Shown: in pieces, positions 5,945 through 34,807 of the stretch
How the letters are laid out: each line of letters begins with the position of its first letter
Numbering within the stretch: position 1 is the first letter of the stretch
Origin: a virus
Taxonomy: Duplodnaviria > Caudoviricetes
Reading direction: 5' to 3' (one strand)
Length of the DNA: 64,000 nt
Virus record (IMG/VR): IMGVR_UViG_3300020469_003235
Coordinates: 1,674 to 65,673 of that record
The notes under the pieces: model-generated
The model's database searches: none
Seen by the model: only the letters and a program-made list of their open reading frames with translations
Told to the model about the DNA's origin: nothing
Made by a program: the position numbers and the translations under genes

Positions 5945-5946
5945 GG

Positions 5947-7526: not shown

Positions 7527-7571
7527 GTAATTAAGTATATACATTATTAAAAGTTAACAAAGGAGAAGACA

Positions 7572-12921: not shown

Positions 12922-12926
12922 ACTCA

Positions 12927-12974
12927 TATTTACCTGCCAGACACCGTTATGTGCTCTTATAATGGCGGTAAATA
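12927..12974. promoter_or_regulatory. divergent pair of TAAATA late-type promoters
   Basis: TATTTACC(12927-12934)...GGTAAATA(12967-12974) inverted repeat; each box is 5 nt upstream of an ATG. Confidence 0.65.
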
Positions 12975-12979
12975 CTATG

Positions 12980-17069: not shown

Positions 17070-17311
17070 CTATATTCCTTTGGTACTGTTCCCCAACCTA
17101 CTGTTCTATCCCAGTCACGTTGTGTATATGTATTTGTTACCTTTTTGTAGGCTTCTTCAAACCCTTCTTCTCTGTGCATTGCTTCGTTATTGTTCCATAA
17201 CCTTTTAAAGTAACTATCGTAACAATCAAAGATGCAATCTTCTGTTGCGTTTAAGTGGCCCTTTACCATATAAAAAATTCTATATGCTTCTCTGCGTGTT
17301 ACTTGAGTCAT
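17060..17311 (-). CDS. hypothetical protein
   Basis: 83-aa ORF with AGGAAGGA SD, overlapping both neighbours. Confidence 0.6.
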   Translation of the reverse strand: MTQVTRREAYRIFYMVKGHLNATEDCIFDCYDSYFKRLWNNNEAMHREEGFEEAYKKVTNTYTQRDWDRTVGWGTVPKEYRCE

Positions 17312-18796: not shown

Positions 18797-20091
18797 AAAG
18801 CATCTCCAAGTTCAGGAAATATTTTAGTGTAGTCTAATCCACGTTGTTCATCAAGCACTCTTATGTAATCAAGTGTTTGAGGTAACTTTGCTGACCAGTC
18901 TTCTTCCATCATATATTTTATTAAACCTTCCCAACGTACTCGGCCCATTGGGTGTTGAATCCATTGTGTGTTAAATTTTTGTCTGTCTATAAATGCTTCA
19001 ATACGTTTTTTAGCAAACTGTTTGTACTCTTCTGGTAACACTCGTACATTTAGATAAGACGGAAAATATACAAGGTGTGTACTAATCATTCCGCCTTGTG
19101 TTTGTGCATTTACTTTACTAAACCTTTGATCAAGTTTCCATTCAGCAAGTTCATCAAGGTGTGCTACATTAAACATCTGTACTGCTGATGCTATGTTGAT
19201 ATTAATATTTGCATTACTTGAATCAAGTATTTTTATATTCTTTTCAATGTCTGCCCATTTGCTCGGATAACGTATGTAATCATTCTTTTCACCATACGCA
19301 TCAATACTAAAATTAAATGTTACTTCCTTAAAGTGTTGCCATAGTACAAATAGTTCAGGTTTTAATACAAGTCCGTTACTGTTATATCTAATGCAACAAT
19401 TTTCAGCATGGCCTTCATCAACCATAAATTGTAATATGTTATAGTGTTCAGGAATCATTAGAGGCTCGCCGCCTGCAAAATATAATTCTTTAATATGCTG
19501 TGCTTGGTCTTTCATAGAATCTAAAAACGATCCTTTCTTATACCAAGTGTAATCAAAGTCCTCATTCCAACTTTGATCATTAATTAACTCTTTGTTTGTG
19601 TACTTAGGATGATTTAGTTTCCATTCTTTAATCCAACTGCTTGAATCATGTGGACTACACATAACACATTTAAGTTGACATACATTACCTAAACGTAAAT
19701 CAAAGTAAGGAACATTAACAGGCAAGTTACCTTGTTCATCTGTTTTTTCTACAATGCTATCTATGTCTAAACGTTGTTTCCATACTTCTGTTTCCCATTG
19801 ACGTTTACTAACAATACCTTTGCTTTCTTCTGCAAAACATTTGCGACAACTTTCTGGGATTTCATCATTTAACATTTGCAATCTTGTTCGACGCATGTGT
19901 TCACTATTCCATACTTCTTCAATAGTGTGTTCACGCAAGTTCATACTGACTCCGTCTTTCTTAACAAGTCCTGCTGTCTTATCATCTTCTATACCTGCAC
20001 CTGATGCATTAGCAGTACAACAAACTCTAACATCACCGTTAGGTCGTGTTGCTAAATGTATCCAAGGTAAAGGGCAAAATGTTTTAGACAT
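18787..20091 (-). CDS. radical SAM enzyme with N-terminal twitch domain (type B)
   Basis: FCPLPWIH..GDVRVCC..CRKC then CQLKCVMC, AGGEP, NSNG, SIDA. Confidence 0.88.
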   Translation of the reverse strand: MSKTFCPLPWIHLATRPNGDVRVCCTANASGAGIEDDKTAGLVKKDGVSMNLREHTIEEVWNSEHMRRTRLQMLNDEIPESCRKCFAEESKGIVSKRQWETEVWKQRLDIDSIVEKTDEQGNLPVNVPYFDLRLGNVCQLKCVMCSPHDSSSWIKEWKLNHPKYTNKELINDQSWNEDFDYTWYKKGSFLDSMKDQAQHIKELYFAGGEPLMIPEHYNILQFMVDEGHAENCCIRYNSNGLVLKPELFVLWQHFKEVTFNFSIDAYGEKNDYIRYPSKWADIEKNIKILDSSNANININIASAVQMFNVAHLDELAEWKLDQRFSKVNAQTQGGMISTHLVYFPSYLNVRVLPEEYKQFAKKRIEAFIDRQKFNTQWIQHPMGRVRWEGLIKYMMEEDWSAKLPQTLDYIRVLDEQRGLDYTKIFPELGDALCK

Positions 20092-21082
20092 GTTCTTTCC
20101 TTTCAAACTGTGCATTTAGTTTGTCAAAATTTCCACATTGCTTTGAACATTCTTTTATACCAGTTGAAGTCCAACAACTACTAATTTTGTTAAAGAAGTT
20201 ACTGTCAAATATTTCTTTCAAGGACTGCTTGTGTAGGTTAGGAAACTTACCTATCTTTACCATATAATCTATACGTTGTGCTGAGTGCTGTGGTATCCAT
20301 TCTAAGTCTAACCAACAACAAGGACTAACATTACCATTTGCACTAATATACATTTGATTATCTTGTTTTGCTTTACAAGTAATTGTAGGTAGTATTTCTT
20401 GCATTGCTTGTTTTGCAGGCTCGATCATTTCAAGACTCTTTCTTGACGGCAATAAGGTATGTGTGATATTGTAGTTGTCATCAAGTACGTCAAACTTACC
20501 ATCTTTAAATCTTGTAGTGTGCTTAATACTAAATCCTTTGAATCCTAATTCTTTACTCATTTTTTCACAAGTATCAACTTGATGTTCGTTGTGTGCAAAC
20601 ACTAACATATCCCAACGTGCATCTCCGCCTACGTGTATAAACTGTGATGCATTGTTAATAATCTTTTCCCAGTTAGTATTAATTCTATACAATGCATGTG
20701 TGTCATTTAACCCGTCAATACCAAATACAACTTTTACTTTTAGTTCTGCAAGTCCACGCCACCATTCTTTAGTTCTACCACTTCCGTTAGTGTGCATTTG
20801 CAATGTCATTTCTGAATTATTTTCACGCAGGTATCTAAAAATTTTTAATGTATCTTTTGCAACAATAGGATCTCCTAAGTTTCCACACATATTAAGAAAC
20901 TTTAGTTGTTGTACAAAACTTATAGGAAACCATTCTTTGAAAGTGTCAATAGATATTTCTTCTAAATCTAAACCCTCAAGTAATGGACCGCCATGTAATC
21001 TACGTGGACACATTGGACAACGTGCTTGGCACTTAGAAGTAACTTCTAAATGTATTGACGTTATGTCCTGATAATTATACAT
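20084..21082 (-). CDS. radical SAM enzyme with C-terminal SPASM/twitch (type A)
   Basis: CQARCPMC, GNLGDP, HTNGS, FGIDG; C-term C..GNVSPCC..CSKQC; clear paralog of 12980-13963. Confidence 0.88.
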   Translation of the reverse strand: MYNYQDITSIHLEVTSKCQARCPMCPRRLHGGPLLEGLDLEEISIDTFKEWFPISFVQQLKFLNMCGNLGDPIVAKDTLKIFRYLRENNSEMTLQMHTNGSGRTKEWWRGLAELKVKVVFGIDGLNDTHALYRINTNWEKIINNASQFIHVGGDARWDMLVFAHNEHQVDTCEKMSKELGFKGFSIKHTTRFKDGKFDVLDDNYNITHTLLPSRKSLEMIEPAKQAMQEILPTITCKAKQDNQMYISANGNVSPCCWLDLEWIPQHSAQRIDYMVKIGKFPNLHKQSLKEIFDSNFFNKISSCWTSTGIKECSKQCGNFDKLNAQFERKEHV

Positions 21083-21696
21083 TACTTCTGATTCATCCTT
21101 TCAAGTGTGCTTTGAATAGTATCTGGATTTAAATCAACATTTACAATTAACCAATAACTATCATTAAAACTACTGTTGAATAGATAGTGCATTTTTAATG
21201 TATCTACAAAGTAAAGTCTACCTGGTTCCCAATGTAGTGTTTTATCTTCTAATACAAAATTAAAGTACGGAGGATTAACATTACGTAAAGGCATAATCAA
21301 TCTAAAACTGTCTGCTTTACCCGAATGGTAGTTCCAATCTCTGTGTGGAGGAAAGAATCCTCCTGGACCAAACTTTAAAAAGTGTGTTCTATAATAATCT
21401 TTGTCCCAAGGTTTAAGTATATCATGTATTTGTTTGTTTAGTACAGGAGTTGCTACGTTAAAATCTTTTTCATTGTATGATGTTTTGTTTTCTTTATTGT
21501 ACTCGTATAAACTATCTAAATCAATACCGTTGAATGTACCGTCTGAACTTGTAACACTTAATCCCCAACGATTAACATCTTTACGTGGATTATATTTTTG
21601 CCATTCAAAATCATTAGCCCAAGCAATTAACATTTCTGGATCAGTTGTTACGTCTAATTCGATATGCTGACCGTATTGTGTAAGTCTATGTATCAT
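21082..21696 (-). CDS. Asp/Asn beta-hydroxylase-like 2OG/cupin dioxygenase
   Basis: RTHFLKFGPGGFFPPHRD...FVDTLKMHYLFN. Confidence 0.65.
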   Translation of the reverse strand: MIHRLTQYGQHIELDVTTDPEMLIAWANDFEWQKYNPRKDVNRWGLSVTSSDGTFNGIDLDSLYEYNKENKTSYNEKDFNVATPVLNKQIHDILKPWDKDYYRTHFLKFGPGGFFPPHRDWNYHSGKADSFRLIMPLRNVNPPYFNFVLEDKTLHWEPGRLYFVDTLKMHYLFNSSFNDSYWLIVNVDLNPDTIQSTLERMNQK

Positions 21697-22301
21697 TTCT
21701 TTTTCCCTATAACCATAAATCGTTTGTACTTAGGTAATTGAATCTCATCTTTTACTTCTATCTCCAACATACTTTTCCTTGCAAATTGATCTAAACTGTC
21801 ATAGCAATTAACATGCTCTTCTAATTCGTAGTAATCATTACTTTGCACAATAACCTGTGCGGAATCTGGTACATTGTTTAACCATTGTTTGTATTTTTTA
21901 TGAGTAATGTGTTCGCAACTTGTGTTGATAACAATATAAGGCTCTGTTTCATATTTGTAATCTACCATATCACAAGTCACTGCTTCAAACTTACCTTCCA
22001 TTTCGTATCTCTTGTTTACTGTAGTTGCAATTTCCTTGCATACAGGATCAACATCAACACTTATAATTTTTTTAACACCTACTTCGCTGTTGAATAGCAT
22101 ACTTGCCAGTAATCCGTTCCAGCCTCCGTGTATAACTATTTCAGCATTACGTATTAATTTGTTCTTTTCTGAGATAGTATTAATCAACCATAACTTAGAT
22201 TGTATTTGACCACCCCAAAAAGTTTCTAATGTACGATCTTTATCTTCGCTATTGCGAATTGCGTCCATCCAGAACTTAATATCTTGAATATCAATTTTCA
22301 T
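21693..22301 (-). CDS. class I SAM-dependent methyltransferase-like protein
   Basis: VIHGGWNG (motif I), ISVDVD (motif II), CDM, INTSCEH. Confidence 0.6.
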   Translation of the reverse strand: MKIDIQDIKFWMDAIRNSEDKDRTLETFWGGQIQSKLWLINTISEKNKLIRNAEIVIHGGWNGLLASMLFNSEVGVKKIISVDVDPVCKEIATTVNKRYEMEGKFEAVTCDMVDYKYETEPYIVINTSCEHITHKKYKQWLNNVPDSAQVIVQSNDYYELEEHVNCYDSLDQFARKSMLEIEVKDEIQLPKYKRFMVIGKKK

Positions 22302-23040
22302 TTCTAATCTTCTTATTATATTTAACTGCTTCTTGAAGCAATGTAAATTCAGCATTGTACCCTTGTGCTTGGTGTATTAGTGCATCTACGTCCTTAGGAA
22401 AGCAATGGCCGCCAAACCCACGCTTTTCTGTTACATTTGAATGGCTATGTCCTATGCGTTCGTCCTCTGCAACAAATTTTCGTACTTGTTCGGAACTAAC
22501 TCCTGCACTATTACAAAGATCTTCTAATTGATTAAAGAACGATACTTTTAATGCAAGGAAACTGTTACGTGCATACTTGGCTAATATTAATTCTTCAGGA
22601 TCTGCTGGCTTTACTGTTATAGTTCCAAGTAGTTCTACAAAAAAGCCTGCCCAGAAGTGTGTACTGTCACCACCTAACAACACAGTCTTTGTATTTGCAA
22701 AGTCTATTACTGCTGTTTCGGCACGTAAGAACTCTGGACTGAATGTTAACTGCTTTTCAGGAAATGTATCTCGTAGCATACGCCAACCTTCAAGACTTAT
22801 TGTACTCTTAATTAAAATAGGGACATCTGGTGCTTCCTGAATAACTTCAAATACGTTATTCATGTTACAACTTCCATCAGATCGTCGTGGCGTACTTACA
22901 CAAACAATAATTGCTTGTGCATTTCGTAAATCATCGTAATGGCCAAACTTATGATCGCTGATTAAAACTGTATTTTTGTTTTTCATACACTCAGCAATGG
23001 CTTTGCCTACGTAACCGTATCCTGCTATTCCTACGTTCAT
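22291..23040 (-). CDS. UDP-glucose/GDP-mannose dehydrogenase family protein, C-terminally shortened
   Basis: GYGYVG, CVSTP, IKSTI, SPEFLR, KYARNSFLALKVSFFN, GFGGHCFPKD. Confidence 0.85.
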   Translation of the reverse strand: MNVGIAGYGYVGKAIAECMKNKNTVLISDHKFGHYDDLRNAQAIIVCVSTPRRSDGSCNMNNVFEVIQEAPDVPILIKSTISLEGWRMLRDTFPEKQLTFSPEFLRAETAVIDFANTKTVLLGGDSTHFWAGFFVELLGTITVKPADPEELILAKYARNSFLALKVSFFNQLEDLCNSAGVSSEQVRKFVAEDERIGHSHSNVTEKRGFGGHCFPKDVDALIHQAQGYNAEFTLLQEAVKYNKKIRNEN

Positions 23041-23999
23041 AATTTCCTCTTTGGTATTTTGCTATCTGCACTGCTTACACACGTTGGTGTAATACAAAGC
23101 ATTGGTTTATCAAACAATCTAAATCCATCTTGTAACGTGCCTAAAGGTTGATCATGGCAACTGTAACTACGTTTAACTTCGTTGTTTCTAATTATGCAAC
23201 TTTGATATCCGCTGTTACATTCCCAACCTTTAAATTTATTAAATCCGTAAGCATTTAGGCGTTCTGCTTGGTCAATACTATATTCTATTCCATTAACATC
23301 CGTAAGCGAGACTTGGTGGACTGATTGTTCGCTTTCGGTACGCAATATTTCTTTTTGTTCCTCTGTGTAACCACTGACCACAAACGATGCAGTTGGATCA
23401 CTTTGCGGTTTAAGAGTGACGTGTAAGCCTCTATCAATAAATCTTTTACTTCTGGCATAATATTCCTCCCATAGTTCGGGTACCATAACTTGATTAATAG
23501 TTACAAGTACACCTTCATCTTGGAGATACAAAAGTTTATCTCCGAATTCTTTTTCATCTGCAAATTCTGCATGAAAACTTGCTGTAATACTTCTTCTGTC
23601 CATAACATCTGTAACATCTAAAAACTTTTTCCACCATTTCTTTGCTGGACTACAATTACTTGTCATGTGTATGCTTAGGTATTCGCTTTCATAATCCTCA
23701 TAGTGATTAACTAAATCTAAAAAGCCTTTGTATGCTGTAGGCTCGCCACCACTAAAACTAAAATGAAATTTATCGAAGCCATTTGCTTTTGCTTGTTTCT
23801 TGATTTCATCAATAGATGTTTTATAAACTTCTAATTCCTGATAGTCTGGCTTGTCGGTGTTAGCGTAAGGCCAACAGTAACTACACTTGTAATTACAGAA
23901 CCTGCCAAGGATCCAACTAACGCTGAATAGATTAGTATCTAACATTGTTTTCTGTCCGAGACTTACTATGTCTTTAAATGGAATCTTTGTATTCGTCAT
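23037..23999 (-). CDS. radical SAM enzyme (type C)
   Basis: SWILGRFCNYKCSYC, SGGEPT, SFHAEF; C-term WECNSG..C..CITPTC; paralog of 17280-18209. Confidence 0.85.
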   Translation of the reverse strand: MTNTKIPFKDIVSLGQKTMLDTNLFSVSWILGRFCNYKCSYCWPYANTDKPDYQELEVYKTSIDEIKKQAKANGFDKFHFSFSGGEPTAYKGFLDLVNHYEDYESEYLSIHMTSNCSPAKKWWKKFLDVTDVMDRRSITASFHAEFADEKEFGDKLLYLQDEGVLVTINQVMVPELWEEYYARSKRFIDRGLHVTLKPQSDPTASFVVSGYTEEQKEILRTESEQSVHQVSLTDVNGIEYSIDQAERLNAYGFNKFKGWECNSGYQSCIIRNNEVKRSYSCHDQPLGTLQDGFRLFDKPMLCITPTCVSSADSKIPKRKL

Positions 24000-24663
24000 A
24001 CTGCTCCTTTAACCATTCAAAGTCATTTATTTTATATAAAATTTCTTTATCATCTTTGTGTGCTGTACCAAAGTGTTTTCCTACTTGGGCACCGTGAATA
24101 GCATACTTGCCAAACTCGTTGTTGGCACCTACTGTACACCATGTTGTTAATCGTTGTTCTGTTTCTTCGTCTACTTGACCTGGTATAGTTTTACTTGCTA
24201 ATTTTACGCATTCTCTAAATGCACCTCTCCATGTACTAAGAGCATCTGTGTTAAATGCAGTTATACAACTGACCTCTGGCATTGCTTTAAATTTATTACT
24301 AATGCTTGTAGTCATGTCGGGTATAGAGATGTCCATGTTCAGTGTGAGTGATCGTGGTAGTAACTTTACACCTCCATACCCGTATTCCAAGTTATTAATC
24401 GGATTTATACTTCGCCATACATGTACTGTTTCTAAATCCCACTCGGAAACCTCGTAATCAAATTGAAAGCCTCTTGATAATTCTGCATCACCATCTACAA
24501 CCCAGAACATTTTAGTAAAACATTTTTTAGCCGCGGCAATGTGTGCTTGATGTATTCCGTCAATGTCTTTTACACGTTTAGCCATAGGAAATTGGCTTCT
24601 CAAAATTTCCCAATTATTTTCTGCATTGGCTTCGCCATGACTTATAAAGACTATATCATACAT
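23974..24663 (-). CDS. GT-A fold glycosyltransferase-like protein
   Basis: DIVFIS, AHIAAA, FWVVDGD (DxD), GYGGVKL, WRGAFRECVKL. Confidence 0.55.
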   Translation of the reverse strand: MYDIVFISHGEANAENNWEILRSQFPMAKRVKDIDGIHQAHIAAAKKCFTKMFWVVDGDAELSRGFQFDYEVSEWDLETVHVWRSINPINNLEYGYGGVKLLPRSLTLNMDISIPDMTTSISNKFKAMPEVSCITAFNTDALSTWRGAFRECVKLASKTIPGQVDEETEQRLTTWCTVGANNEFGKYAIHGAQVGKHFGTAHKDDKEILYKINDFEWLKEQYDEYKDSI

Positions 24664-25466
24664 CTTACTTTATCCTTTATTTGTTCAACAACTTGATCGT
24701 GTATGTCATACCCATCATGTGCCATATCTCTTGCACGACCAGTCATCTTTGTTTTTACTGTTTGTACCATATCCTTGTCATACTTTGTTTTAAAGTCTGC
24801 TTGGAACGTCCAATTATGTACAGGCACCCCAAGTGCGTTCCATATATTGTTTACACTATTTAAATGATACAAATTTTCATAATTCATTTGTCCTTGTTCG
24901 TGAGCCCAACGTTTATGATACCAATTTGAATCCATCATTTCATATTCTTCTTCAGTTCCGTCTGGAGTAAAATTAATATTTCTATCTTCTAATCGTATCT
25001 GCGAGCCATGAAAAAGTGTTTTCTCTATGTATGCAAAACTCTTTCTTGACGAGTGTGGCCATTGAATTAAGACGCATTTAGGAAGTACTATTTTGTTCTT
25101 CACGAATAAATGTGTGTTTAACGCAATAATATCAGGTCCTGTGCCTGCTTTGGCTAAGTTTATTACGTCTAAACCATACATTTGTGCAATTTTATTACAC
25201 CATATTTCTTCTTCGTATAAACCTACTCCTTCAGTATAACTGCACCCGAACACTAAAATATAATCGTGATTAAGACCCGTTAATTCTTTTGTGCGATATC
25301 CAAGGCTATTAAAGTTATATTCTAACTTGTCAGCAGTATTATGATAGTGCCAACCTTCTTTGTTATGTTCTTTATAATTTTCTTTATCATCTCCACAATA
25401 CCAATGCAGACTCTTACCAGCCTTACCGGGAAAATATAATAATGGATGATCTTTACTGTAATACAT
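24651..25466 (-). CDS. SGNH/GDSL-like acyl-esterase or acyltransferase
   Basis: NSLGYR, FGCSYTEG (block I), NLAKAG (block II), DMAH (DxxH). Confidence 0.55.
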   Translation of the reverse strand: MYYSKDHPLLYFPGKAGKSLHWYCGDDKENYKEHNKEGWHYHNTADKLEYNFNSLGYRTKELTGLNHDYILVFGCSYTEGVGLYEEEIWCNKIAQMYGLDVINLAKAGTGPDIIALNTHLFVKNKIVLPKCVLIQWPHSSRKSFAYIEKTLFHGSQIRLEDRNINFTPDGTEEEYEMMDSNWYHKRWAHEQGQMNYENLYHLNSVNNIWNALGVPVHNWTFQADFKTKYDKDMVQTVKTKMTGRARDMAHDGYDIHDQVVEQIKDKVRCMI

Positions 25467-26650
25467 TATCTTGTGTTTCCGTATTGTAGTACAAGATACT
25501 TAGAATTCTTTTTCATTTTCCTCCAAGGATCAATAAACACAGTATCCTCAGCATAATCTAAGTATGGGGTTGGGTGAGCAAGTAAAACTATACCGCCAAG
25601 GTTTGCTTCATGGCTTGGCATTTCACTTGCAAGTGGATCAATAGCAATAGTTGTTTTTCCTGCTTCTCTTATATAATGATCTACAAGTAACGCATAACTA
25701 CCATCAACATATGGTACTCCTGGTTTATATGAAATACCATTTAGAAAAATACCTCCGCCATATTTCTTTTGTGTTTCAATAACAAACATTGCAAGATTTT
25801 TTGCTTGTACTTCTCTTGCTGTCATAATACTGTCAAAGATATCATATTCTAAATTTAATTCTTTTGCCATGTAACGTAATGCAATATTATCTCTTGGGTG
25901 GCAACTGCCACCATCGCCCATACCTGCTGTCATGTACATTGGACTCATAATACGTTGCGTTGAATGTGCAAGTGCATCTGTTACTACGTCAACATTAATA
26001 TTACCTTGACGTTGTGCAACATCTTGAATCATATTAACAAGACTTAATTTAGTTGAAATAAATGTATTGTAAAATACTTTAATACATTCGCACTCGTCAT
26101 ATGTTCCTATAACATAACGTGGATCATTTTCCATAATGCTTTGATAAAATTCTTTTAGTTGTTTTGCATCACCTGTTTCGCTACCATCGTCTGTGCCTAT
26201 CATTACCATCTCTGGATTAATCATATCCCAACCTACAGTACCCATTGCAATTAAATAAGGATTATATACAAAACGTGTGTGCGTAACACGTGGTACAAAT
26301 TCTCTACGTGTTGTACCTGGTAATACTGTACTAATAAGAACAAGCAGTTGATCTTTTGTCATAAACATATCTGCTTCTTCAAGAACCTCATTTACAATAC
26401 TATAATCAAAGTCTTTAGGTTCAAGATGACTTGTTGGACGTCTGCCGTCATAGTCAGGGTGGTGTGGTGTTGGCACTGCAACAAATACGATATCTGCACC
26501 AGTTACTGCTTCACAGACTGATTCTTTTTGATCAATCAATTCACTATAAACATTTGTAATGTCATAGCCTTGAACTGTATGCCCTTTCTTAACTATTTCC
26601 TCTGCACAAGGTATGCCCAATTTACCTACCCCAATAAATCCAATTTTCAT
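25466..26650 (-). CDS. UDP-glucose/GDP-mannose dehydrogenase family protein
   Basis: GFIGVGKLG, AVPTP, STVLPGT, YNP, KVFYNTFISTK, GDGGSCHPRD, GISYKP; AAGGAG SD. Confidence 0.85.
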   Translation of the reverse strand: MKIGFIGVGKLGIPCAEEIVKKGHTVQGYDITNVYSELIDQKESVCEAVTGADIVFVAVPTPHHPDYDGRRPTSHLEPKDFDYSIVNEVLEEADMFMTKDQLLVLISTVLPGTTRREFVPRVTHTRFVYNPYLIAMGTVGWDMINPEMVMIGTDDGSETGDAKQLKEFYQSIMENDPRYVIGTYDECECIKVFYNTFISTKLSLVNMIQDVAQRQGNINVDVVTDALAHSTQRIMSPMYMTAGMGDGGSCHPRDNIALRYMAKELNLEYDIFDSIMTAREVQAKNLAMFVIETQKKYGGGIFLNGISYKPGVPYVDGSYALLVDHYIREAGKTTIAIDPLASEMPSHEANLGGIVLLAHPTPYLDYAEDTVFIDPWRKMKKNSKYLVLQYGNTR

Positions 26651-26742
26651 GATATCTCCTTGTAACCGCACTGGTGCAGACTTTGGAACCGGCTAAGGCT
26701 CCAATCTTCAGACCAATTGCATAAATCAATAGTTTCACTCAC
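26647..26742 (-). other. structured leader and/or 31-aa upstream ORF (MSETIDLCNWSEDWSLSRFQSLHQCGYKEIS)
   Basis: GTG 5 nt downstream of a TAAGTA box; TGA overlaps the next ATG (ATGA); contains a long hairpin 26667-26721. Confidence 0.35.
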
Positions 26743-26747
26743 ACTAT

Positions 26748-26772
26748 TACTTATTAACTACGCACATAAATA
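26748..26772. promoter_or_regulatory. divergent TAAGTA (-) and TAAATA (+) late-type boxes
   Basis: TAAGTA on - at 26748-26753; TAAATA on + at 26767-26772 inside CACAT-AAAT-ATGTG palindrome, 5 nt before ATG 26778. Confidence 0.55.
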
Positions 26773-26777
26773 TGTGT

Positions 26778-27365
26778 ATGTTTGAAACCGTCAAAGAGTT
26801 TGAAAGAAGCATTGCAGACTATTACAATGCACCATTTGCTGTAGCAACGGATAGTTGTACTCATTCTATCGAACTTTGCCTACGTTACTTGCAACCCGAC
26901 CAAGTAAAGATACCTGCAAGAACATATATCAGTATTCCTTTTACACTAATGAAGTTAAACATCAAGTGGGAATTCCTTGATGCTTCTTGGAAAGAAGAAT
27001 ATGTATTAGGTGGCACAAGAATTATTGATGGTGCTGTTAGTTTCAAACGTGGTAGTTATTTGCCAGATACTTTTAAGTGTTTAAGTTTTCAATATAAAAA
27101 AATGTTAGGACTTGGACGAGGTGGTGCAATACTTTGTAGCACACAGAATGATTATGATATTTTAAAAGCAATGGCACATGATGGTAGGACTGACGACAAG
27201 CCATGGGGCGAACAAGACATTCAATACATAGGTTATCATTATTACATGACTCCTGAAACTGCGGCACAAGGTATTGACTTGTTAAAAACAGTAAAAGAAG
27301 AAGAACAGAAAATTTGGAGTAGCGATGACTATCCATACTTGCCTGATATGAAAGTTTTTAAATGA
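26778..27365 (+). CDS. DegT/DnrJ/EryC1/StrS PLP aminotransferase, shortened
   Basis: FERSIADY..AVATDSCT, PARTYIS, IIDGA, SFQYKK (PLP Lys), GRGGAI, GYHYYMT. Confidence 0.8.
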   Translation: MFETVKEFERSIADYYNAPFAVATDSCTHSIELCLRYLQPDQVKIPARTYISIPFTLMKLNIKWEFLDASWKEEYVLGGTRIIDGAVSFKRGSYLPDTFKCLSFQYKKMLGLGRGGAILCSTQNDYDILKAMAHDGRTDDKPWGEQDIQYIGYHYYMTPETAAQGIDLLKTVKEEEQKIWSSDDYPYLPDMKVFK

Positions 27366-28330
27366 ATACAAACGAATGGGGTCAACTTAGAAAAGTAATA
27401 GTTGGAGTTGCAGATCATGCAAAGATACCTGATGATATTGATATTAGTTTACGCTGTGTAAACTTTGCTGATAAGTTAGACGAAACAGAAATTATCAAAG
27501 GACCTTATCCAAATAAGGTTATTGAAGAAGCAAATGAAGACTTAGAAACATTTGTAGAATTTTTACAAGCAGAAAATGTAGAAGTTGTACGTCCTGAGAA
27601 AACAAATTGTAATTACTATAACTACTGTCCAAGAGATAGTGTACTTGTACACGGTAATCTAACACTTGCTACACCGATGCCTATACGAGCAAGAAAGGGT
27701 GAGTGGAGAGCATTTCAACATCATTTAGATAATCCTAAAGAAATACGTTGCTTCAATGAAAGTCAATTATACAACAAAGACTGTATTGGCAATAAAGATA
27801 TTTTAGCACTCAATGAATACAGTCCTGCATTTGATGCCGCTAATATTATTCGTGCAAACGATCAACTGCTATACTTGGTTAGTAATAGTGCAAACAAGTT
27901 AGGTGCAAACTTATTACAAGGGGCTTTAGGTTCTACTGCTAAAGTAAATCTACTGCAAGACGTTTATAGTTATATGCACATTGACAGTACTGTTGCATTT
28001 TTGCGTGAAGGGTTATTACTTGTTAATCCAAGTAGAATAAAAGTAAGAGAAGATTTGCCTGAGCCATTTAGAAATTGGGATATTATATGGTGTCCTGAAC
28101 CTGTAGACATTGGTCACTTTCCTAAATGGTGTAATGCAAGTACATGGATTAACATGAATTTGTTTAGTGTAAATACAAAGTTAGTTGCATTAGAAGAACA
28201 CCAAGAGGATCTAAGACATCTCCTTGAGCACCAAGGAATAGAGTGTGCTATGTTACCAATGCGACATCAACGTACACTTGGCGGTGGCTTTCACTGCGTA
28301 ACATTGGATGTAAAAAGAGATGTGGACTAA
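27362..28330 (+). CDS. amidinotransferase (glycine / inosamine-phosphate amidinotransferase family)
   Basis: NEWGQLRKVIVG, YCPRD, FDAAN, HIDST, LGGGFHC (catalytic Asp/His/Cys). Confidence 0.85.
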   Translation: MNTNEWGQLRKVIVGVADHAKIPDDIDISLRCVNFADKLDETEIIKGPYPNKVIEEANEDLETFVEFLQAENVEVVRPEKTNCNYYNYCPRDSVLVHGNLTLATPMPIRARKGEWRAFQHHLDNPKEIRCFNESQLYNKDCIGNKDILALNEYSPAFDAANIIRANDQLLYLVSNSANKLGANLLQGALGSTAKVNLLQDVYSYMHIDSTVAFLREGLLLVNPSRIKVREDLPEPFRNWDIIWCPEPVDIGHFPKWCNASTWINMNLFSVNTKLVALEEHQEDLRHLLEHQGIECAMLPMRHQRTLGGGFHCVTLDVKRDVD

Positions 28331-28814
28331 AGGTAAATGCCCTGTACTATGGGACGAAGGATACAAATATTTTAATTACGTTAGACAACCTATTACAGGT
28401 GCTGAGTCTGATACGTGGCGTGAGCAAGGTTATACGCATGAAACTACAACAGGTAAAATGTATGACAGTCGTAATCCTATGCCTGACTATGCTGAACAAG
28501 TTGCACAATTATTAAACTTAAAAAACTGTGGATTTGTATTTTATAAAATGGATACATTAGATATTATGCCTACCCATGTTGATCATTATAATACATATTG
28601 TAAAGTTTTTAATCAGAAGCATGAAGATGTAAGACGTGCTATTGTATTCTTAGAAGATTGGAAACCAGGACACTACTTTGAAGTAGATAGTACTGCACTT
28701 GTAAATTGGAAAGCAGGTGAGTTTGTTTTATGGCATCCTGAAGTACCACATGCGGCCAGCAACATTGGTGTTGATTCAAGATACACTTTACAGATTACTG
28801 GCACCTACTGGTAA
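28320..28814 (+). CDS. 2OG/cupin dioxygenase-like protein
   Basis: IMPTHVD (HxD), FLEDWKPGH, PHAASNIG, RYTLQITG. Confidence 0.65.
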   Translation: MWTKGKCPVLWDEGYKYFNYVRQPITGAESDTWREQGYTHETTTGKMYDSRNPMPDYAEQVAQLLNLKNCGFVFYKMDTLDIMPTHVDHYNTYCKVFNQKHEDVRRAIVFLEDWKPGHYFEVDSTALVNWKAGEFVLWHPEVPHAASNIGVDSRYTLQITGTYW

Positions 28815-29836
28815 TGTTTTCACAAGATATTTTCTGGGGTAACTTACCTGTTAAGTCTACCAAGTTAGGCTCAATGTTTAATGAACTGTTTGAACATTGG
28901 TTTCCTAAAGAGCCTTTTATTATTTTTACTGGTACAAACAAAATAAACTTTGATAAGTTTCCTCTTACTCCTAAGATAGCAAAGAAACTTAAAACACTCA
29001 GCATATATTTGTACGAGCCGTTAAGTTTATACGAAGTTGGCAAAAAGCATAACAGAGATTTCTTTAGTGAATTCAAAGGTGGTGAAAATCTTTATGCTGA
29101 TGAGTTAGACAGTATATTAGCATTTAGTGAAACACTAAAAGATGTAGAGATTACTGTATACACCTGTGATTATAATGTAGAGAAACATATAAAAGATTAT
29201 CCGTTTAAACTAAAATGCTTTGATATATTTTTACGCAATCAGTTTAATGGCGGTGTGCTTACAGTTAATAATGATATTGACAAACACTTTATCTGTCCTA
29301 ATTGGCGTTACAGTTTACACAGACGCTTAATAATAGAACACCTACAAGACACTCCAGGTTATTATAGTTGGGCGTTTAGTAATCCTCCATTAAGTATTGA
29401 TACAGAATTACAAAGTGTAGATCCTGCACATAAAAAATGGCCTGAAGGAAACTTAAATGGTCCAGCAGGACTATCTAAGTATTACGCAAAGAGTTTTTGT
29501 GTAGTTGCAAACGAAACACGCTTCTATCAACCAACAGGAAATTTTAGTGAAAAAACTGTTAATGCAATGATACACAAACGCCCGTTTGTTTGCGTTGCTC
29601 CGCCTTACACATTAGAATATATCCGCAAGTTAGGATTTAAAACATTCAGTTGGGACGAAAGTTATGATACTGAAGAAGACCATATCAAACGTATGAATAA
29701 AATACGTTACTTGTTAGATAGTATAAAATTAATGAGTATTGAGCAGTGTAAAGATATGCTTATTGAAATGGACGATGTGCTTACACACAATCAAACACTT
29801 GCGGCTAAGGTTTACAAGAATCATAAAATTCTTTAA
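28814..29836 (+). CDS. glycosyltransferase-like hypothetical protein
   Basis: C-terminal FCVVANET..FSEKT..KRPFV..LGFKTF resembles the GT-B/GT10-like SEK motif. Confidence 0.4.
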   Translation: MFSQDIFWGNLPVKSTKLGSMFNELFEHWFPKEPFIIFTGTNKINFDKFPLTPKIAKKLKTLSIYLYEPLSLYEVGKKHNRDFFSEFKGGENLYADELDSILAFSETLKDVEITVYTCDYNVEKHIKDYPFKLKCFDIFLRNQFNGGVLTVNNDIDKHFICPNWRYSLHRRLIIEHLQDTPGYYSWAFSNPPLSIDTELQSVDPAHKKWPEGNLNGPAGLSKYYAKSFCVVANETRFYQPTGNFSEKTVNAMIHKRPFVCVAPPYTLEYIRKLGFKTFSWDESYDTEEDHIKRMNKIRYLLDSIKLMSIEQCKDMLIEMDDVLTHNQTLAAKVYKNHKIL

Positions 29837-31172
29837 GTTCAGGAAACGTTTCAACAAGGTTGCTATTGCTACGTTTGTCATATTGCGTAAACCAATTGTA
29901 AAAAGTTTTACGTCCTATTGCTAACTTCTTATCATCATAGGTAGTTGTACGCATATAGTCTACAACACGTCTAAAACGCTCATACTCCAACAAACTAAAC
30001 TTATGGCGGTCACTGTCATCAACGTTATCTCCGATGTACTGTAGGTGCCTTGTCATGTACGGAATGAACTGTTCTTTAGGCAATATGTTCATGTCAAACT
30101 GTATTGGCTCTTTTAAGTACGGAGTATCAAATCTAATGTTTTGCCATTGTATACCTGCATTTGCTCTTGTGTATTTTTTACGCCATTCAAGTATTTTCTT
30201 AAGAAGCAAATCAAAACTTGTTACAGCAAACAAATTGAATGTAATCATAAACGTTACAGGATAACCAAGTTCAGTTAGATAGTAATCTAAATTCTTTTCC
30301 CATAGTTCAATATCTAATCCACGTCTTGTATATTCTGCTTTAGGTCCCCAAGTGTCTATGCTTGTGTATAGTTTGAAACTTCTTATACAGTTCTTTGCTT
30401 TAAGTTCTTTCACACGTTCTACAAGTTTGTGTACAAGAGATTCCTTAACACCCATGTTACTGTTTACTTCAATTTGTATATGAGGTTTAGGATTTGCTTC
30501 AAGTTCATCAAACAAACGCCAAGTACTTTTGTGCATTAAAGGTTCGCCACCAGTAATACGTAAGATGTTTAGTGTCTTACTAACTTCAGGCCACCACTTC
30601 CACCATGCTTCTACATATGGATTAGTTTCTTCTTCATAAAGTTCAAACCAATCAATGTCATTACGGTGTGCTGATACATCTGTGTACGGACCTTCTTTTT
30701 TAATTTCATTAAAGTATCTACTACTAAATTTAGGGTGACAGTATCCGCATTTAAAATTACATTCATTACTAAAGTTTACTTCAATGTATTCAGGATTAAT
30801 ATTATAATCCCACGGATTGTTTTTTATCTCTTCGATACGTTTAGGTGTGTATATACTTGTTGTTTTAATATGCCTATCACTGATGTAGTCTTTACCCATA
30901 CATTCAATGTTCCAACAATATTGACAACCGCTTGGCTTCTCTCCGGCAAGCATTTGTTTACGTTCTTGTTTCTTTTGCGGAGTATTATGTAATTGACTTG
31001 GATTATCAATTAAACCTTCGAGTGGTATTTTATGCGGAGCAGGGTGATAACAACTGTGTGTTTCTCCTGTTTGCAAATATATTGTTACATGGTGCCATTT
31101 AGCCAAGCAGAATGTAGGCGAGATTTTATCTGCCTCTGGCATTATTTTTTTAATTTGTTCTACTTCGCTCAT
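29805..31172 (-). CDS. radical SAM enzyme with N-terminal twitch-like domain (type B)
   Basis: FCLAKW..THSCYH..CQYC then CNFKCGYC, TGGEP, NSN, SIDT. Confidence 0.85.
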   Translation of the reverse strand: MSEVEQIKKIMPEADKISPTFCLAKWHHVTIYLQTGETHSCYHPAPHKIPLEGLIDNPSQLHNTPQKKQERKQMLAGEKPSGCQYCWNIECMGKDYISDRHIKTTSIYTPKRIEEIKNNPWDYNINPEYIEVNFSNECNFKCGYCHPKFSSRYFNEIKKEGPYTDVSAHRNDIDWFELYEEETNPYVEAWWKWWPEVSKTLNILRITGGEPLMHKSTWRLFDELEANPKPHIQIEVNSNMGVKESLVHKLVERVKELKAKNCIRSFKLYTSIDTWGPKAEYTRRGLDIELWEKNLDYYLTELGYPVTFMITFNLFAVTSFDLLLKKILEWRKKYTRANAGIQWQNIRFDTPYLKEPIQFDMNILPKEQFIPYMTRHLQYIGDNVDDSDRHKFSLLEYERFRRVVDYMRTTTYDDKKLAIGRKTFYNWFTQYDKRSNSNLVETFPELKEFYDSCKP

Positions 31173-31414
31173 TGAATCCAGTTATAAATTCCACGCATGG
31201 CAAGTACCAAATAAAATAATTCCATTAATGCTCTTGGTGTGTCACCATCTTTCCAACCCATATAAATCCAAATGATGCAACTAAAACATGCAACACCCCA
31301 GCCTATGGCTTGCCAAGAAGGATCACCTCCACTTAAAATAAATGCAGACGCCATAGCAAGAAAAAATCCTAACCATCGCCATCCGTTAATATTATGATAG
31401 TATCTAATTTTCAT
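31169..31414 (-). CDS. small 3-TM membrane protein (PnuC/SemiSWEET-like size)
   Basis: 81 aa, three hydrophobic stretches, ends GIYNW. Confidence 0.5.
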   Translation of the reverse strand: MKIRYYHNINGWRWLGFFLAMASAFILSGGDPSWQAIGWGVACFSCIIWIYMGWKDGDTPRALMELFYLVLAMRGIYNWIQ

Positions 31415-32304
31415 TTTCGTCTAATTACCCTATCTCCGTTTACATAAACATGTTTAAAAAACTTGCTTTGCTCTTTGTCTAATGCTCGTGTACTTATCGG
31501 TAAGTCAAATGCGTTTTGTAAATGTTCGCCAAGATTAAATATCTCTTCTTCACATTGTCCTTTGTCAAACGAATCGTACAAGTCATTCCAGTATTTGTTT
31601 AAGTATTCAAAATCTCTTGTCTGTGTATGGTCCCAATCAGTAAGCATTGTTTTATAACAACCCTCTCTTGCACCCATAATACTCCATAATCCATTTGTAA
31701 CATCTGCACCCACTTGCATCCACACCAGTAATCTATGATAATTCTGCCACCATAGTTCACTAAAGTCTTTAATAACTTTACCTTGATCTAAACTCATCTT
31801 AACACCCTCACGGAAACCTGCTCTCCATGCTTGTTGTGGTGTTGAACTTATAATACTTGTTGAGTAGTTTTGATTAAGTTGATAGTAGTTGTCAAAGTAA
31901 CAAAACTCAATACTTGTTTGATCAGTTCCGTCTGTGTTTTCATGTGTTTGCATATTCTTAACAAACTCTTTAGTCCACATTTTTAAACTGCCGTTACCAT
32001 ACATTAGTCCGTTGACATCAATTTTACCACACCAACTAAACTGGTAATCATCATCTACACCTAATTTGTCTAAGTCTAACACTACTTCTATAAATTTAGG
32101 ATCAATAATAGTGTCACCGTCTACAGTAACAAAGTGTTTTGTATCGGATAAGTCTGCACAGGCTTTGTGTGCGGCGTCTGAACCTTCTACACCATGTACA
32201 CGTTTTGCCCACGGCACTTTGCGTTTTAGGTCTGCCCAGTTTTCTTCAGCATTAGGCTCGTCATAACTTAAAAAGATAATATCCTGTTCAGCGATTTTAA
32301 TCAT
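31411..32304 (-). CDS. GT-A fold glycosyltransferase-like protein
   Basis: DIIFLSYDE, AHKACA, FVTVDGD, YGNGSLK, WRAGFREGVKM; paralog of 23974-24663. Confidence 0.55.
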   Translation of the reverse strand: MIKIAEQDIIFLSYDEPNAEENWADLKRKVPWAKRVHGVEGSDAAHKACADLSDTKHFVTVDGDTIIDPKFIEVVLDLDKLGVDDDYQFSWCGKIDVNGLMYGNGSLKMWTKEFVKNMQTHENTDGTDQTSIEFCYFDNYYQLNQNYSTSIISSTPQQAWRAGFREGVKMSLDQGKVIKDFSELWWQNYHRLLVWMQVGADVTNGLWSIMGAREGCYKTMLTDWDHTQTRDFEYLNKYWNDLYDSFDKGQCEEEIFNLGEHLQNAFDLPISTRALDKEQSKFFKHVYVNGDRVIRRK

Positions 32305-32860
32305 TTATGACTCCTGTGCTATAACTATTGAACAACTTATTAGTATATAAGTCGTATTGTTTTATTATAACATCATCTTGGTCAAATTGCAAGTCTAAAT
32401 TTGCATCTGACAAGTTAAATTTTAATGTTCTATGCAGTTTATATGGATCGTTTTTATCTACAACACTAAAATTCTTAATCGTTTGTAGTGTTACAGTATT
32501 CTTTTCTAATGTTTTAGCAAATAGTGTACCAAACTGTAGTTGCCATGTTTTAGTTTTGTAATTTTTAATAACATTAATGTCTGCTTCTATATTATTAGGT
32601 ATCTTGTATATACTATTGTTAACATTGTATTCAAAACGTTCTTCTTCATGTACATTAACAAGTTCATACATGGTTGATGTTGGATTAAATTGAACTTTAT
32701 AGTGTAAGAAGTTTTCCGAGCCGTCTAATAGTCCTGCTACTGCTTTTGGATCTACTTCAATATGCTGTTTTGTTGGGTATGAAGTAATCGTTAGGATACT
32801 TCCTGTCTTAGAATCAAACTCTATATATGTTTGTACTTCATCTTTATGCATATCTGTCAT
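32297..32860 (-). CDS. hypothetical protein
   Basis: ORF tiling the operon; start likely 32860. Confidence 0.55.
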   Translation of the reverse strand: MTDMHKDEVQTYIEFDSKTGSILTITSYPTKQHIEVDPKAVAGLLDGSENFLHYKVQFNPTSTMYELVNVHEEERFEYNVNNSIYKIPNNIEADINVIKNYKTKTWQLQFGTLFAKTLEKNTVTLQTIKNFSVVDKNDPYKLHRTLKFNLSDANLDLQFDQDDVIIKQYDLYTNKLFNSYSTGVIND

Positions 32861-33653
32861 AAAACTTATCCGTAAAATCTTTTTCAGTGTAATGAAACAC
32901 TGTATCTTGTAAATGACCACCAACTCTTAACTGTGCTTCATTGTTAACAAAACAACTTACACGATCTTGCCATTTCTTTGTTTGTGTTTTCCATGTTTGT
33001 ACATAAGGTTTCATATGTACAAAAGTTGGAAACGCTAAAGTCTTGTTTGTAACTTTGTTTTCTACACCTAACATCTTAATTGCAATACTTGTACATACAT
33101 CTACACTGGCAATCTTTTGCATACGCTTGGGTGCATACTTTTCATAACACTCTTCCCAGTGTTTCATTGTGTATTCTAATGCATGATAAAACTCTTTTGC
33201 AAAGTCAGACTTTTTAAAGTAGTGCAATGCAACATAAATGTTGGGTAAGTTGTTTGCTTCAAACATTTTCCTATAATATGTTGCATTAAGTTTACATTGT
33301 TTATAATCTGTAACGTTTGTTGTATAGAAAACTTCATAATTTTGCATTAAGTTCCACCAATTAGATAAGTTATGACACACTAACATGTCTGTGTCTAATA
33401 CAAATGTACTGTCATATGGACATGCATGGTATATCTTCCAACGGTTTTGAACTTTCCACTTGTGTTCTTCTGCTTTATCTTCCCACGGTATAGGTACAAT
33501 ATCATCGAATAGTTCTGTACGCTCTACATTGTCATTAGTAATTAAACAAATCTTACTATCTGGATTAGTTTTCCTAATACTCAATGCTAATAATTCTGCT
33601 TGACGTATATAATTGTATTCACTATTTTGTGCAAGGAAAGTAAAATTAGGCAT
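32844..33653 (-). CDS. GT8-like glycosyltransferase
   Basis: LALSIRKTN..ICLIT, CPYDSTFVLDTDML (DxD), FVHMK. Confidence 0.6.
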   Translation of the reverse strand: MPNFTFLAQNSEYNYIRQAELLALSIRKTNPDSKICLITNDNVERTELFDDIVPIPWEDKAEEHKWKVQNRWKIYHACPYDSTFVLDTDMLVCHNLSNWWNLMQNYEVFYTTNVTDYKQCKLNATYYRKMFEANNLPNIYVALHYFKKSDFAKEFYHALEYTMKHWEECYEKYAPKRMQKIASVDVCTSIAIKMLGVENKVTNKTLAFPTFVHMKPYVQTWKTQTKKWQDRVSCFVNNEAQLRVGGHLQDTVFHYTEKDFTDKFYDRYA

Positions 33654-34467
33654 TAGCAATTTCCCTTCCTAAACTAAACTTGTTCATTATATGTAAATTT
33701 ATACCTTGTGTACGAATTAACGTATATTCTCCTATACGATCTTGTTTTTCTACAAGTAGTGTAAATGAATCGTCTTTAATTTTTTGTAATATATCTTTGC
33801 CTGTACTATAAACCATTTTACCGGGTAATTCTTTTGTATACCCCATAATATGATTTGCAATACTAAATGCAATATCATTTCTAAATACTGTTGTTGTAAC
33901 TTGATACAAGTTACGATAGTGTTCGTAATGTTCTTTTATATGTTTTACAAGATTAAAAAATGCTTCATTGCGATCTGACTTATCAAATATAATACATGTC
34001 GCCCACCAAAAGTCTATTGATGTTTCACTAATTAATTCAAACTCACTTGTATCTCTCCAACCACTAATATCCATTGACTTTTTATACATCATAAGTTCGT
34101 GCGGTAACGTCATTGCATGTGCAAGTAAATCATTGCTTACAATGTAGTCAGTGTCTAACACTAAAGTTCTATCATAAGGAGTTAAGTCGTAACTATCACT
34201 TCTATTAAAGTTTTTAAACTCTAATACTTTTTTAGATAAACTTCCGTCTTGATATGTTTTACGATTTTTATATTCTATAGATGATGAAACAATTTTATCA
34301 AATACTTCTTTTCCGTTGTAAAATTTTACAACACGTTCTACATCATCTGTTACAAGTGTGGTAGGTAAGTTTAAGTACTTTTTAATTCTCTTTGCAAGGA
34401 ACCGAGCCTGCGATACGTAATCAACTTGCTCATTATTGAATGCAAATAAAAGTACTCCACTATTCAT
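33646..34467 (-). CDS. GT8-like glycosyltransferase
   Basis: GVLLFAFNN, TPYDRTLVLDTDY (DxD), FRNDIAFS, HIMNK; paralog of downstream gene. Confidence 0.6.
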   Translation of the reverse strand: MNSGVLLFAFNNEQVDYVSQARFLAKRIKKYLNLPTTLVTDDVERVVKFYNGKEVFDKIVSSSIEYKNRKTYQDGSLSKKVLEFKNFNRSDSYDLTPYDRTLVLDTDYIVSNDLLAHAMTLPHELMMYKKSMDISGWRDTSEFELISETSIDFWWATCIIFDKSDRNEAFFNLVKHIKEHYEHYRNLYQVTTTVFRNDIAFSIANHIMGYTKELPGKMVYSTGKDILQKIKDDSFTLLVEKQDRIGEYTLIRTQGINLHIMNKFSLGREIANA

Positions 34468-34807
34468 TAACCAATCCATCTACAGATCTACTTGTTTCAA
34501 GTTTGCTGTAGTCTTTATGATAGTTGTTTAGTGCAACATAATATTTGTCTGTAATATTATCGTAAAAATCTGATATGTCATCAATAAAGATAGGAGTGTC
34601 AGTGTCATCAATTAACACAGATGAATCTTGATCAGTTGACTGTAATGTGTAAACATAGTTAATCAACTCTTTGTTAATTGTAAATTGTCCGCCTTGAAAG
34701 AAGTATATAGACTCTGTAACAAACTTTTCCTTCAAAACTCTCCTTTGGTTATTAAGAGTTGCGGAATAGTTTCCAAATTCTAAGGCTTTTGATAGTTTCT
34801 CGTCCAT
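34460..34807 (-). CDS. hypothetical phage protein
   Basis: 115-aa ORF; TAAATA (34813-34818, - strand) 5 nt upstream, no SD. Confidence 0.7.
   Translation of the reverse strand: MDEKLSKALEFGNYSATLNNQRRVLKEKFVTESIYFFQGGQFTINKELINYVYTLQSTDQDSSVLIDDTDTPIFIDDISDFYDNITDKYYVALNNYHKDYSKLETSRSVDGLVNE

Follow-up and report, generated by a model that had tools for sequence, protein, structure and literature searches.

The subject of this report is a cassette of four genes at positions 26778 to 29836 of a 64-kb stretch of viral DNA, hereafter the window, which covers positions 1,674 to 65,673 of the 65.7-kb IMG/VR record IMGVR_UViG_3300020469_003235. All four genes lie on the + strand. Gene 1 (26778..27365) encodes a half-size DegT-like pyridoxal phosphate (PLP) enzyme of 195 amino acids, or 197 if translation begins at an upstream in-frame ATG at 26772. 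Gene 2 (27362..28330, 322 amino acids) encodes a StrB1-like L-arginine amidinotransferase, gene 3 (28320..28814, 164 amino acids) a small cupin that is a probable Fe(II)/2-oxoglutarate (2OG) oxygenase, and gene 4 (28814..29836, 340 amino acids) a predicted glycosyltransferase of the GT-B fold, possibly GT10-like. The genes overlap at every junction, by ATGA between genes 1 and 2 (27362-27365), by 11 nucleotides between genes 2 and 3 (28320-28330) and by TAATG between genes 3 and 4 (at 28814). The four reading frames, their coordinates and the ATGA coupling are thus all present as the first-pass annotation of this DNA had described them, and the genes are translationally coupled. The families that it had named (a DegT-type PLP enzyme, an amidinotransferase, a cupin and a glycosyltransferase-like protein) were also right, except that the DegT protein is only half-size.

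Comparisons with related phages were made across 32 loci, of which 31 came from a scan of IMG/VR (amidinotransferases 60-96% identical) and one from the GenBank entry of phage S-SCSM2R (63%). Absence of gene families was assessed in five records, including the complete 244-kb S-SCSM2R genome.

Enzymes of the cassette and their conservation

Gene 2 belongs, by homology, to the StrB1 branch of the amidinotransferases and is predicted to carry out arginine-dependent transamidination. In a phmmer search of the PDB, residues 4-319 of its 322 matched StrB1 (PDB 1bwd) with an E value of 4.7e-58 and 200 bits, compared to 122 bits for HsvA (3.8e-34), 105 bits for the glycine amidinotransferase AGAT (2.9e-29) and 95 bits for SxtG (6.4e-26). 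All seven significant matches (1bwd, 5wpi, the 1jdw series and 6u1r) are amidinotransferases, and no arginine deiminase or DDAH chain appeared among the matches up to an E value of 10. The profile of the phage clade also ranks StrB1 first, with 250 bits versus 148 for AGAT. These results favor the affinity to StrB1, over glycine amidinotransferase or arginine deiminase, on which the earlier proposal depended. The CPRD (89-92), HID (206-208) and GGGFHC (307-312) motifs reported at that time are intact. Residues D158, H206 and C312 align with positions 179, 227 and 332 of StrB1, where Cys332, His227 and Asp179 form what we take to be its catalytic triad. All 15 aligned family members keep these three residues and both the CPRD and the GGGFHC motif unchanged. 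Many relatives of gene 2 (among proteins P0022-P0119) carry the automatic JGI name "N-dimethylarginine dimethylaminohydrolase"; this name is probably wrong, because the PDB search gives only amidinotransferase homology. The acceptor of gene 2 is not readable from its sequence. The five residues before the catalytic histidine are VYSYM in gene 2 and LYAST in StrB1, and the corresponding DPNPM of AGAT is described as shaping specificity (PMC4887976).

Gene 1 is DegT-like and is not a canonical member of the DegT family. It passes the Pfam profile PF01041 (DegT_DnrJ_EryC1) with 53.9 bits (cut-off 19.8) in two separate stretches, one covering profile positions 24-92. Against GDP-perosamine synthase (3dr4), residues 7-54 and 97-176 align to residues 40-90 and 176-251, respectively, and K110 falls on the Schiff-base lysine of that enzyme (SFFGNK motif). 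D86, K109 and K110 are invariant, K110 in all eight sequences. Canonical DegT enzymes have two domains, a large PLP domain and a small C-terminal domain, in about 360-400 amino acids; with its 195-197 amino acids, gene 1 lacks the N-terminal ~25-40 residues, ~45 residues in the interior and the C-terminal domain in its entirety. As called, its homologues measure 194-257 amino acids in 32 of 32 loci and 194-206 in 30 of these, and the two longer calls (228 amino acids in L023 and 257 in L015) align over only ~197 residues. A profile search with the half-size form returned at least 8000 candidates, the best 120 of which are 194-216 amino acids long. The short form is thus a large, length-conserved family, and the constancy of length across loci and among the best profile matches argues against decay. 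This half-size family is of enzymological interest by itself.

Structure prediction is consistent with a PLP-dependent fold for gene 1. The AlphaFold model (predicted local distance difference test score, pLDDT, 85.6; predicted template-modelling score, pTM, 0.83) gave 127 Foldseek matches at E values of 1e-3 or lower, led only by sugar aminotransferases and dehydratases of the DegT class; in these enzymes the matched part is confined to the large domain (TMq 0.60-0.67, TMt ~0.35). When modelled as a homodimer with PLP, gene 1 scored 0.86 versus 0.00 for the best of three controls, with three runs agreeing in at least 95% of contacts and a partner pLDDT of at least 92. Of 30 solved pairs of one chain, 20 reached the calibration mark for such dimers, as did one of 23 proteins solved as single chains. 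Since similar dimers have already been solved, the score may reflect likeness to them and not proof, and a homodimer is the predicted working form of gene 1.

In gene 3, residues H86, D88 and H144, which make up an HxD...H iron-binding set, and R154 are invariant in nine of nine aligned homologues. Its Pfam matches to PhyH (18.3 bits, cut-off 22; E 0.003) and AspH (13.7 bits, cut-off 22.6; E 0.057) are both sub-threshold, and a profile search of the PDB returned only AtsK at an E value of 0.7. The nearest Atlas cluster (score 0.98) is viral and carries PF05118 on 19% of its members, and the corresponding S-SCSM2R protein carries the annotation 2OG-Fe(II) oxygenase. These observations suggest that gene 3 is probably a small Fe(II)/2OG cupin oxygenase.

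Gene 4 had no family at the sequence level in Pfam, PHROG, NCBIfam or a PDB profile search. Its model (pLDDT 73) points to a glycosyltransferase of the GT-B fold with two Rossmann-like domains: every match listed by Foldseek is a GT-B enzyme, but none reaches an E value of 1e-3. With VIA-align, 27 chains scored Z values of 8 or more, the top alignments covering 218-250 residues. The best were T4 beta-glucosyltransferase (Z 10.3; root-mean-square deviation 4.8 over 249 residues) and the glycosyltransferase of phage HY126 (PDB 9iqz; Z 10.2), followed by FUT9 (Z 9.5; deviation 3.9 over 218 residues, with the highest identity, 13%) and FUT11 (Z 9.4). The Atlas gave a lead to GT10 with a score of 0.80, no Pfam profile matched, and an invariant ETRF...SEK stretch, in our judgment, resembles the GT10 motif. 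As the top Z values are tied, no class of acceptor is singled out for gene 4.

The genes of the cassette stay together in other phages. A lack of linkage between aminotransferase and amidinotransferase in other genomes had been named as an observation that would refute the original proposal; the half-size DegT gene and the amidinotransferase gene are neighbors, or close to one another, in 32 of 32 phage loci, in at least two gene orders. The cupin gene accompanies them in 31 of 32 loci, the sole miss being a contig that ends 67 nucleotides past the amidinotransferase gene. An orthologue of gene 4 is present in 27 loci; three of the misses are contig ends, and the remaining two loci (L001 and L033) have other glycosyltransferases instead. 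Because most of the loci represent one syntenic jumbo-phage lineage, their agreement partly reflects shared ancestry. In S-SCSM2R and L033, by comparison, the trio of half-size DegT, cupin and amidinotransferase genes lies on a different backbone, in the order DegT, radical S-adenosylmethionine (SAM) protein, glycosyltransferase, cupin and amidinotransferase. The retention of the trio in two orders and on two backbones, and despite insertions between the genes, argues for a functional linkage. No related locus that was examined has a broken cassette gene, and in all 12 pairwise comparisons the ratio of nonsynonymous to synonymous substitution rates (dN/dS) falls between 0.08 and 0.26, so that all four genes are under purifying selection. 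Intact genes in relatives and low dN/dS place the cassette, as judged from sequence comparison, far beyond chance. At an identity of 63% or above, relatives of the amidinotransferase fall into at least 120 protein clusters, and near-identical DNA occurs in marine sequencing runs from more than 10 studies, some of which are possibly the source sample.

Genomic setting and promoter-like motif

The source of the window is an uncultured marine giant phage. CheckV estimates the completeness of the 65.7-kb record at 18%, and the full genome should accordingly measure several hundred kilobases. The window carries phage structural genes, including several fibre-type proteins. Its baseplate hub/lysozyme-like protein is ~31% identical to those of the best-listed jumbo phages (PA5oct and relatives) and 27-31% identical across the matches listed, Atu_ph07 among them. 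The structural region also contains a single open reading frame of 4952 amino acids (42070-56928, - strand), presumably a giant fibre or virion protein, followed by one of 1175 amino acids (56928-60455).

The cassette is part of an island of ~24 kb (10764..34807) that encodes 31 proteins, has the content of soluble tailoring enzymes and ends at the fibre genes, which follow it directly from 34834. Eight radical SAM genes start at 12857, 13953, 15407, 17280, 18787, 20084, 23037 and 29805; they are packed into ~18 kb (12857-31172), and several have N- or C-terminal SPASM domains. The island also holds two more AspH-like cupin genes (12205 and 21082), two UGD-like genes and several proteins without a family. 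As called, the frames at 12205-13146 (- strand) and 12857-13963 (+ strand) overlap by ~290 nucleotides, both with real Pfam domains, and the AspH-like gene at 12205-13146 probably starts at a later ATG than called. In a simple hydropathy scan, none of the 31 island proteins had two or more hydrophobic 19-mers, as would be expected of polytopic membrane proteins, and no cysteine-repeat or other obvious precursor protein was found in the island.

Upstream of the cassette and divergent from it lies a nucleotide-sugar 6-dehydrogenase-like (UGD-like) gene (25466..26671, - strand) with three Pfam UDPG_MGDP_dh domains; its TIGR03026 score of 155 bits is under the cut-off of 189.8. This gene adjoins the cassette in most jumbo-type loci and is not beside the trio in S-SCSM2R. 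Downstream and convergent is the gene for a twitch-domain radical SAM protein of 455 amino acids (29805..31172, - strand), which matches NF033640 (N_Twi_rSAM) over its full length with 309 bits (cut-off 170) and is conserved at this position. Related loci carry additional genes, whose identities were judged by eye. Locus L017 has an extra, GT10-like gene between the UGD-like and DegT-like genes (5764-6711 on the - strand and 7328-8008 on the + strand were noted) and an SGNH-like gene between the DegT-like and amidinotransferase genes, and in L028 the gene of an alternative-oxidase/PTOX-like di-iron protein (5431-6036) separates the GT-B gene from a second cupin gene.

The motif ATAAATA lies at 26766..26772 (+ strand), 5 nucleotides before the ATG at 26778, a start that is also common to gene 1 homologues. 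The motif is strongly avoided in the window, with nine copies (at 3488, 8840, 8873, 26766, 37275, 42067, 42695, 60475 and 60963) compared to 33.2 expected, and seven of the nine lie within 72 nucleotides upstream of a gene start on the same strand. The starts so preceded are those of the cassette, three genes of the fibre and baseplate region, the gene of 1175 amino acids and a gene at 8912, which has two copies; the spacing of 5 nucleotides is identical before the cassette and before the gene starting at 60957. This distribution suggests that ATAAATA is probably the core of the phage's late promoter. Scans for sigma-70 promoters and for terminators stayed at chance level (22 found versus 23.3 expected, and 2 versus 2.7, respectively). 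In a contig present in two RNA-library runs, the sequence is longer by 832 nucleotides at 26667/26678.

Cellular relatives, proposed chemistry and rival explanations

The first-pass annotation had compared the cassette with streptidine formation in streptomycin biosynthesis and had proposed a guanidino-sugar or guanidino-cyclitol as its product. The amino- and guanidino-forming enzyme families and their linkage give this comparison partial support, whereas a cyclitol-forming enzyme was not found and the kinase is not co-conserved. The cyclitol-forming families PF01761 and PF07994 are present in none of the five records, including the complete S-SCSM2R genome, although the host could still supply a cyclitol. 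The "mini-kinase" of 154 amino acids that was thought to supply one step has a sub-threshold match to APH (E 0.006), is found in two of five records, the complete genome not being one of them. Nor did the radical SAM enzymes that were searched, the one at 29805-31172 and that of L033, match any solved dehydrogenase by sequence. For the former, a PDB sequence search for a BtrN-like dehydrogenase gave nothing informative, and for the latter the best match was an unnamed 4Fe-4S protein (E 1e-5). Of the two products, a sugar is the better supported because glycosyltransferase and UGD-like genes are present; a cyclitol is not supported.

Cellular relatives of the amidinotransferase were compared in the best 80 of 214 genome matches (L034-L113). 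They are only 37-40% identical to the phage enzyme. One bacterial homologue scores 379 bits to StrB1, nearly double the 200 bits of the phage enzyme, which makes the phage clade a distinct and more divergent branch. In none of the 80 loci does another gene of the island lie near the amidinotransferase gene, and bacteria therefore offer no model for the cassette. Instead, a protein of ~1170 amino acids with an adenylation-carrier(-membrane) layout stands beside it in 72 of 80 loci, and genes of the ornithine-cyclodeaminase (OCD) and PALP families are each nearby in 28. These last are presumably SbnB/SbnA-like genes of diaminopropionate synthesis, which would point to amino-acid acceptors. Likeness to StrB1 does not imply a streptidine-type acceptor, since the closer bacterial homologues adjoin genes like those of nonribosomal peptide synthetases (NRPS), not inosamine genes. 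The bacterial cluster may represent an uncharacterised guanidino-amino-acid pathway of marine Gammaproteobacteria and Hyphomicrobiales.

With a probability that we put at about one half, the cassette is phage-specific and serves a soluble, late glycan pathway in which a sugar hydroxyl would be converted to a ketone, an amine and then a guanidine, possibly on the phage's own fibres. The succession of reactions is inferred from the enzyme families; substrate, product and target are likewise inferences. A carbinol carbon of the sugar would be oxidized to a ketone by the Fe/2OG cupin or by a neighboring radical SAM enzyme, and the half-size DegT-like PLP dimer would transaminate this ketone to an amine. 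Cys312 of the amidinotransferase would then take the amidino group of L-arginine and pass it to the amine, yielding a guanidino sugar and ornithine. The GT-B enzyme might transfer the guanidino sugar, or it might supply the sugar that is to be tailored. The acceptor is most likely soluble and a macromolecule that is produced at a late stage of infection, since the island enzymes are soluble, the late-type motif is common to virion genes and the island abuts the fibre genes; among such acceptors the phage fibre proteins are favored.

Several points weigh against this guanidino-sugar pathway. No product, substrate or activity has been seen anywhere. The truncated DegT-like protein may bind a ligand other than a nucleotide sugar or may not transaminate at all, and the Pfam matches of the cupin fall under their cut-offs. 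Family resemblance of the amidinotransferase says little about its acceptor, given the NRPS-like contexts in which closer cellular enzymes are found. For gene 4, structural comparison puts two DNA glycosyltransferases at the top, level with GT10 enzymes. The ATAAATA promoter is a consensus match and not a mapped transcription start, and support from RNA is weak: two RNA libraries (X15 and X16) hold a flat 21-kb contig over both strands, which is most likely DNA carried into the library, and two others (X17 and X18) yield a handful of short contigs, identical in sequence, from the amidinotransferase, gene 4 and fibre genes, while library bins without cover carry no meaning. In S-SCSM2R, furthermore, the trio lies among small auxiliary genes and not beside fibre genes, and fibre adjacency is thus not general.

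A closely related, tentative possibility is that the enzymes tailor a glycan already attached to the fibre proteins, acting on a polymer-bound sugar to give a guanidinium-bearing glycan. The absence of lid domains from the half-size DegT protein and the shortening of the amidinotransferase would then be adaptations to an attached sugar, and the fibres would carry a permanent positive charge with which to bind anionic host surfaces. Remodelling of the host surface, in which the island would edit lipopolysaccharide or capsule and, for example, block superinfection, seems unlikely. Zaragoza-Solas et al. (2020) described "host recognition clusters" beside the fibre genes of marine myophages, with glycosyltransferases, UDP-glucose 6-dehydrogenase and radical SAM cassettes, and favored O-chain modification for such islands (PMC7029224). 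UGD-like and glycosyltransferase genes are indeed present here, but an initiating polyprenyl-phosphate transferase, a flippase or a polymerase was not seen, and no island protein has two or more hydrophobic segments. Moreover, a late-type promoter common to virion genes would leave little time for remodelling to matter. Hypermodification of DNA is a somewhat more doubtful explanation. The GT-B enzyme would glycosylate a modified base with an amino or guanidino sugar made by the other three enzymes, resulting in cationic, restriction-resistant DNA. All of the enzymes are soluble, and gene 4 aligns best in structure with T4 beta-glucosyltransferase and with the enzyme of HY126, which is among the phages with arabinosylated 5-hydroxycytosine DNA (PMC13326640). 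However, these Z values lie within 1 of those of GT10 fucosyltransferases and many other GT-B enzymes. None of the five records, of which the S-SCSM2R genome is complete, contains the ThyA-type hydroxymethylase family (PF00303), a search that did not extend to flavin-type hydroxylases. To our knowledge, a late-type promoter and a position beside virion and fibre genes are unlike those of known DNA-modification genes, which also counts against this explanation.

We consider it improbable that the product is a free small molecule, such as an aminoglycoside-like antibiotic or a guanidino metabolite directed against competitors or host metabolism. The authors of the S-SCSM2R study suggested this role in naming "antibiotic synthesis genes" (PMC12801897), and the closest characterised relatives of the enzymes act in the streptomycin, butirosin and perosamine pathways. 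Yet the lack of PF01761 and PF07994 and the sporadic APH-like kinase noted above speak against such a pathway, an exporter or resistance gene was not noticed, and the genes are embedded among glycosyltransferases behind a late-type promoter. Least probable, in our estimate, is direct chemistry on the residues of a virion protein, which would yield, for example, a homoarginine-like or guanidino-alanine-like residue with no sugar acceptor. Characterised members of the AspH family hydroxylate proteins, and three AspH-family cupins are present, along with several radical SAM proteins whose SPASM domains are typical of peptide maturases. The bacterial StrB1-like enzymes beside OCD-family, PALP-family and adenylation-carrier genes would also fit, as would the presence of an amidinotransferase paralogue (ORF266) and a 2OG oxygenase in S-SCSM2R virions (PMC12801897). 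In contrast, the structural neighbors of gene 1 are all sugar aminotransferases, the glycosyltransferase and UGD-like genes are tightly tied to the trio, and the island has no cysteine-repeat or obvious precursor protein.

If the cassette does make a guanidino sugar, biological glycans would gain a new kind of building block, and viruses a new way to charge their surface or DNA. Among the full-text literature matches listed, there was no mention of a guanidino or guanidinylated sugar as a unit of a glycoconjugate. The question is directly testable because a cultured cyanophage, S-SCSM2R, carries the trio.

Comparison with known systems

Compared to StrB1, the L-arginine:inosamine-phosphate amidinotransferase of Streptomyces griseus, gene 2 shows full-length homology and has the fold family, the positions of the triad and the CPRD and GGGFHC motifs in common. 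It is shorter (322 versus 348 amino acids) and is not accompanied by genes of an inosamine pathway, the cyclitol-forming families being missing from all five phage records. Gene 1 has in common with the DegT/DnrJ/EryC1/StrS sugar aminotransferases (3dr4; AHBA synthase, 1b9h; WbpE, 3nu8; BtrR, 2c81) the PLP-binding large domain, the Schiff-base lysine, an aspartate that is invariant as D86 and, by prediction, the homodimer. Unlike those enzymes of ~360-400 amino acids, the phage protein of ~195 lacks the C-terminal domain.

Among the closest known systems is that of S-SCSM2R, a cultured T4-like Synechococcus cyanophage. Its ORF305-309 (PQ898602.1) include the orthologous trio, with an amidinotransferase 63%, a half-size DegT protein 54% and a cupin 34% identical to those of the cassette, in the order DegT, radical SAM, glycosyltransferase, cupin, amidinotransferase and a GT2 enzyme. 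Glycosyltransferases flank the trio, in keeping with a sugar context, the radical SAM gene accompanies it, and an orthologue of gene 4 (g340) is missing. The homologues ORF305, ORF306 and ORF309 were described as "antibiotic synthesis genes" new to cyanophages (BMC Biol 2025, PMC12801897). According to the same report, the proteome of the virion contains another "glycine amidinotransferase", ORF266, together with a 2OG oxygenase (PMC12801897), a hint that enzymes of this kind are bound to virions. ORF266 (L115, 17354-18247) is a distant paralogue of gene 2, with 24% identity over 138 amino acids, and is paired with 2OG oxygenases.

Another is the interchangeable module of the Campylobacter phages CP220 and CPt10, in which Timms et al. 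(2010) described five radical SAM genes and a "glycine amidinotransferase" and whose role they gave as unknown (PMC2853527). In these published works (BMC Biol 2025; Timms et al. 2010), such genes are annotated without a functional test. With its radical SAM genes, amidinotransferase and two GT-A-type genes, the CP220 module is similar in makeup to the island described here. Its amidinotransferase is 24% identical to gene 2, no DegT-like or cupin homologue is detectable in it, and the host and the phage lineage differ. The chemistry proposed for the cassette would nevertheless offer a testable function for these modules of radical SAM enzymes and amidinotransferase, which have been unexplained since 2010.

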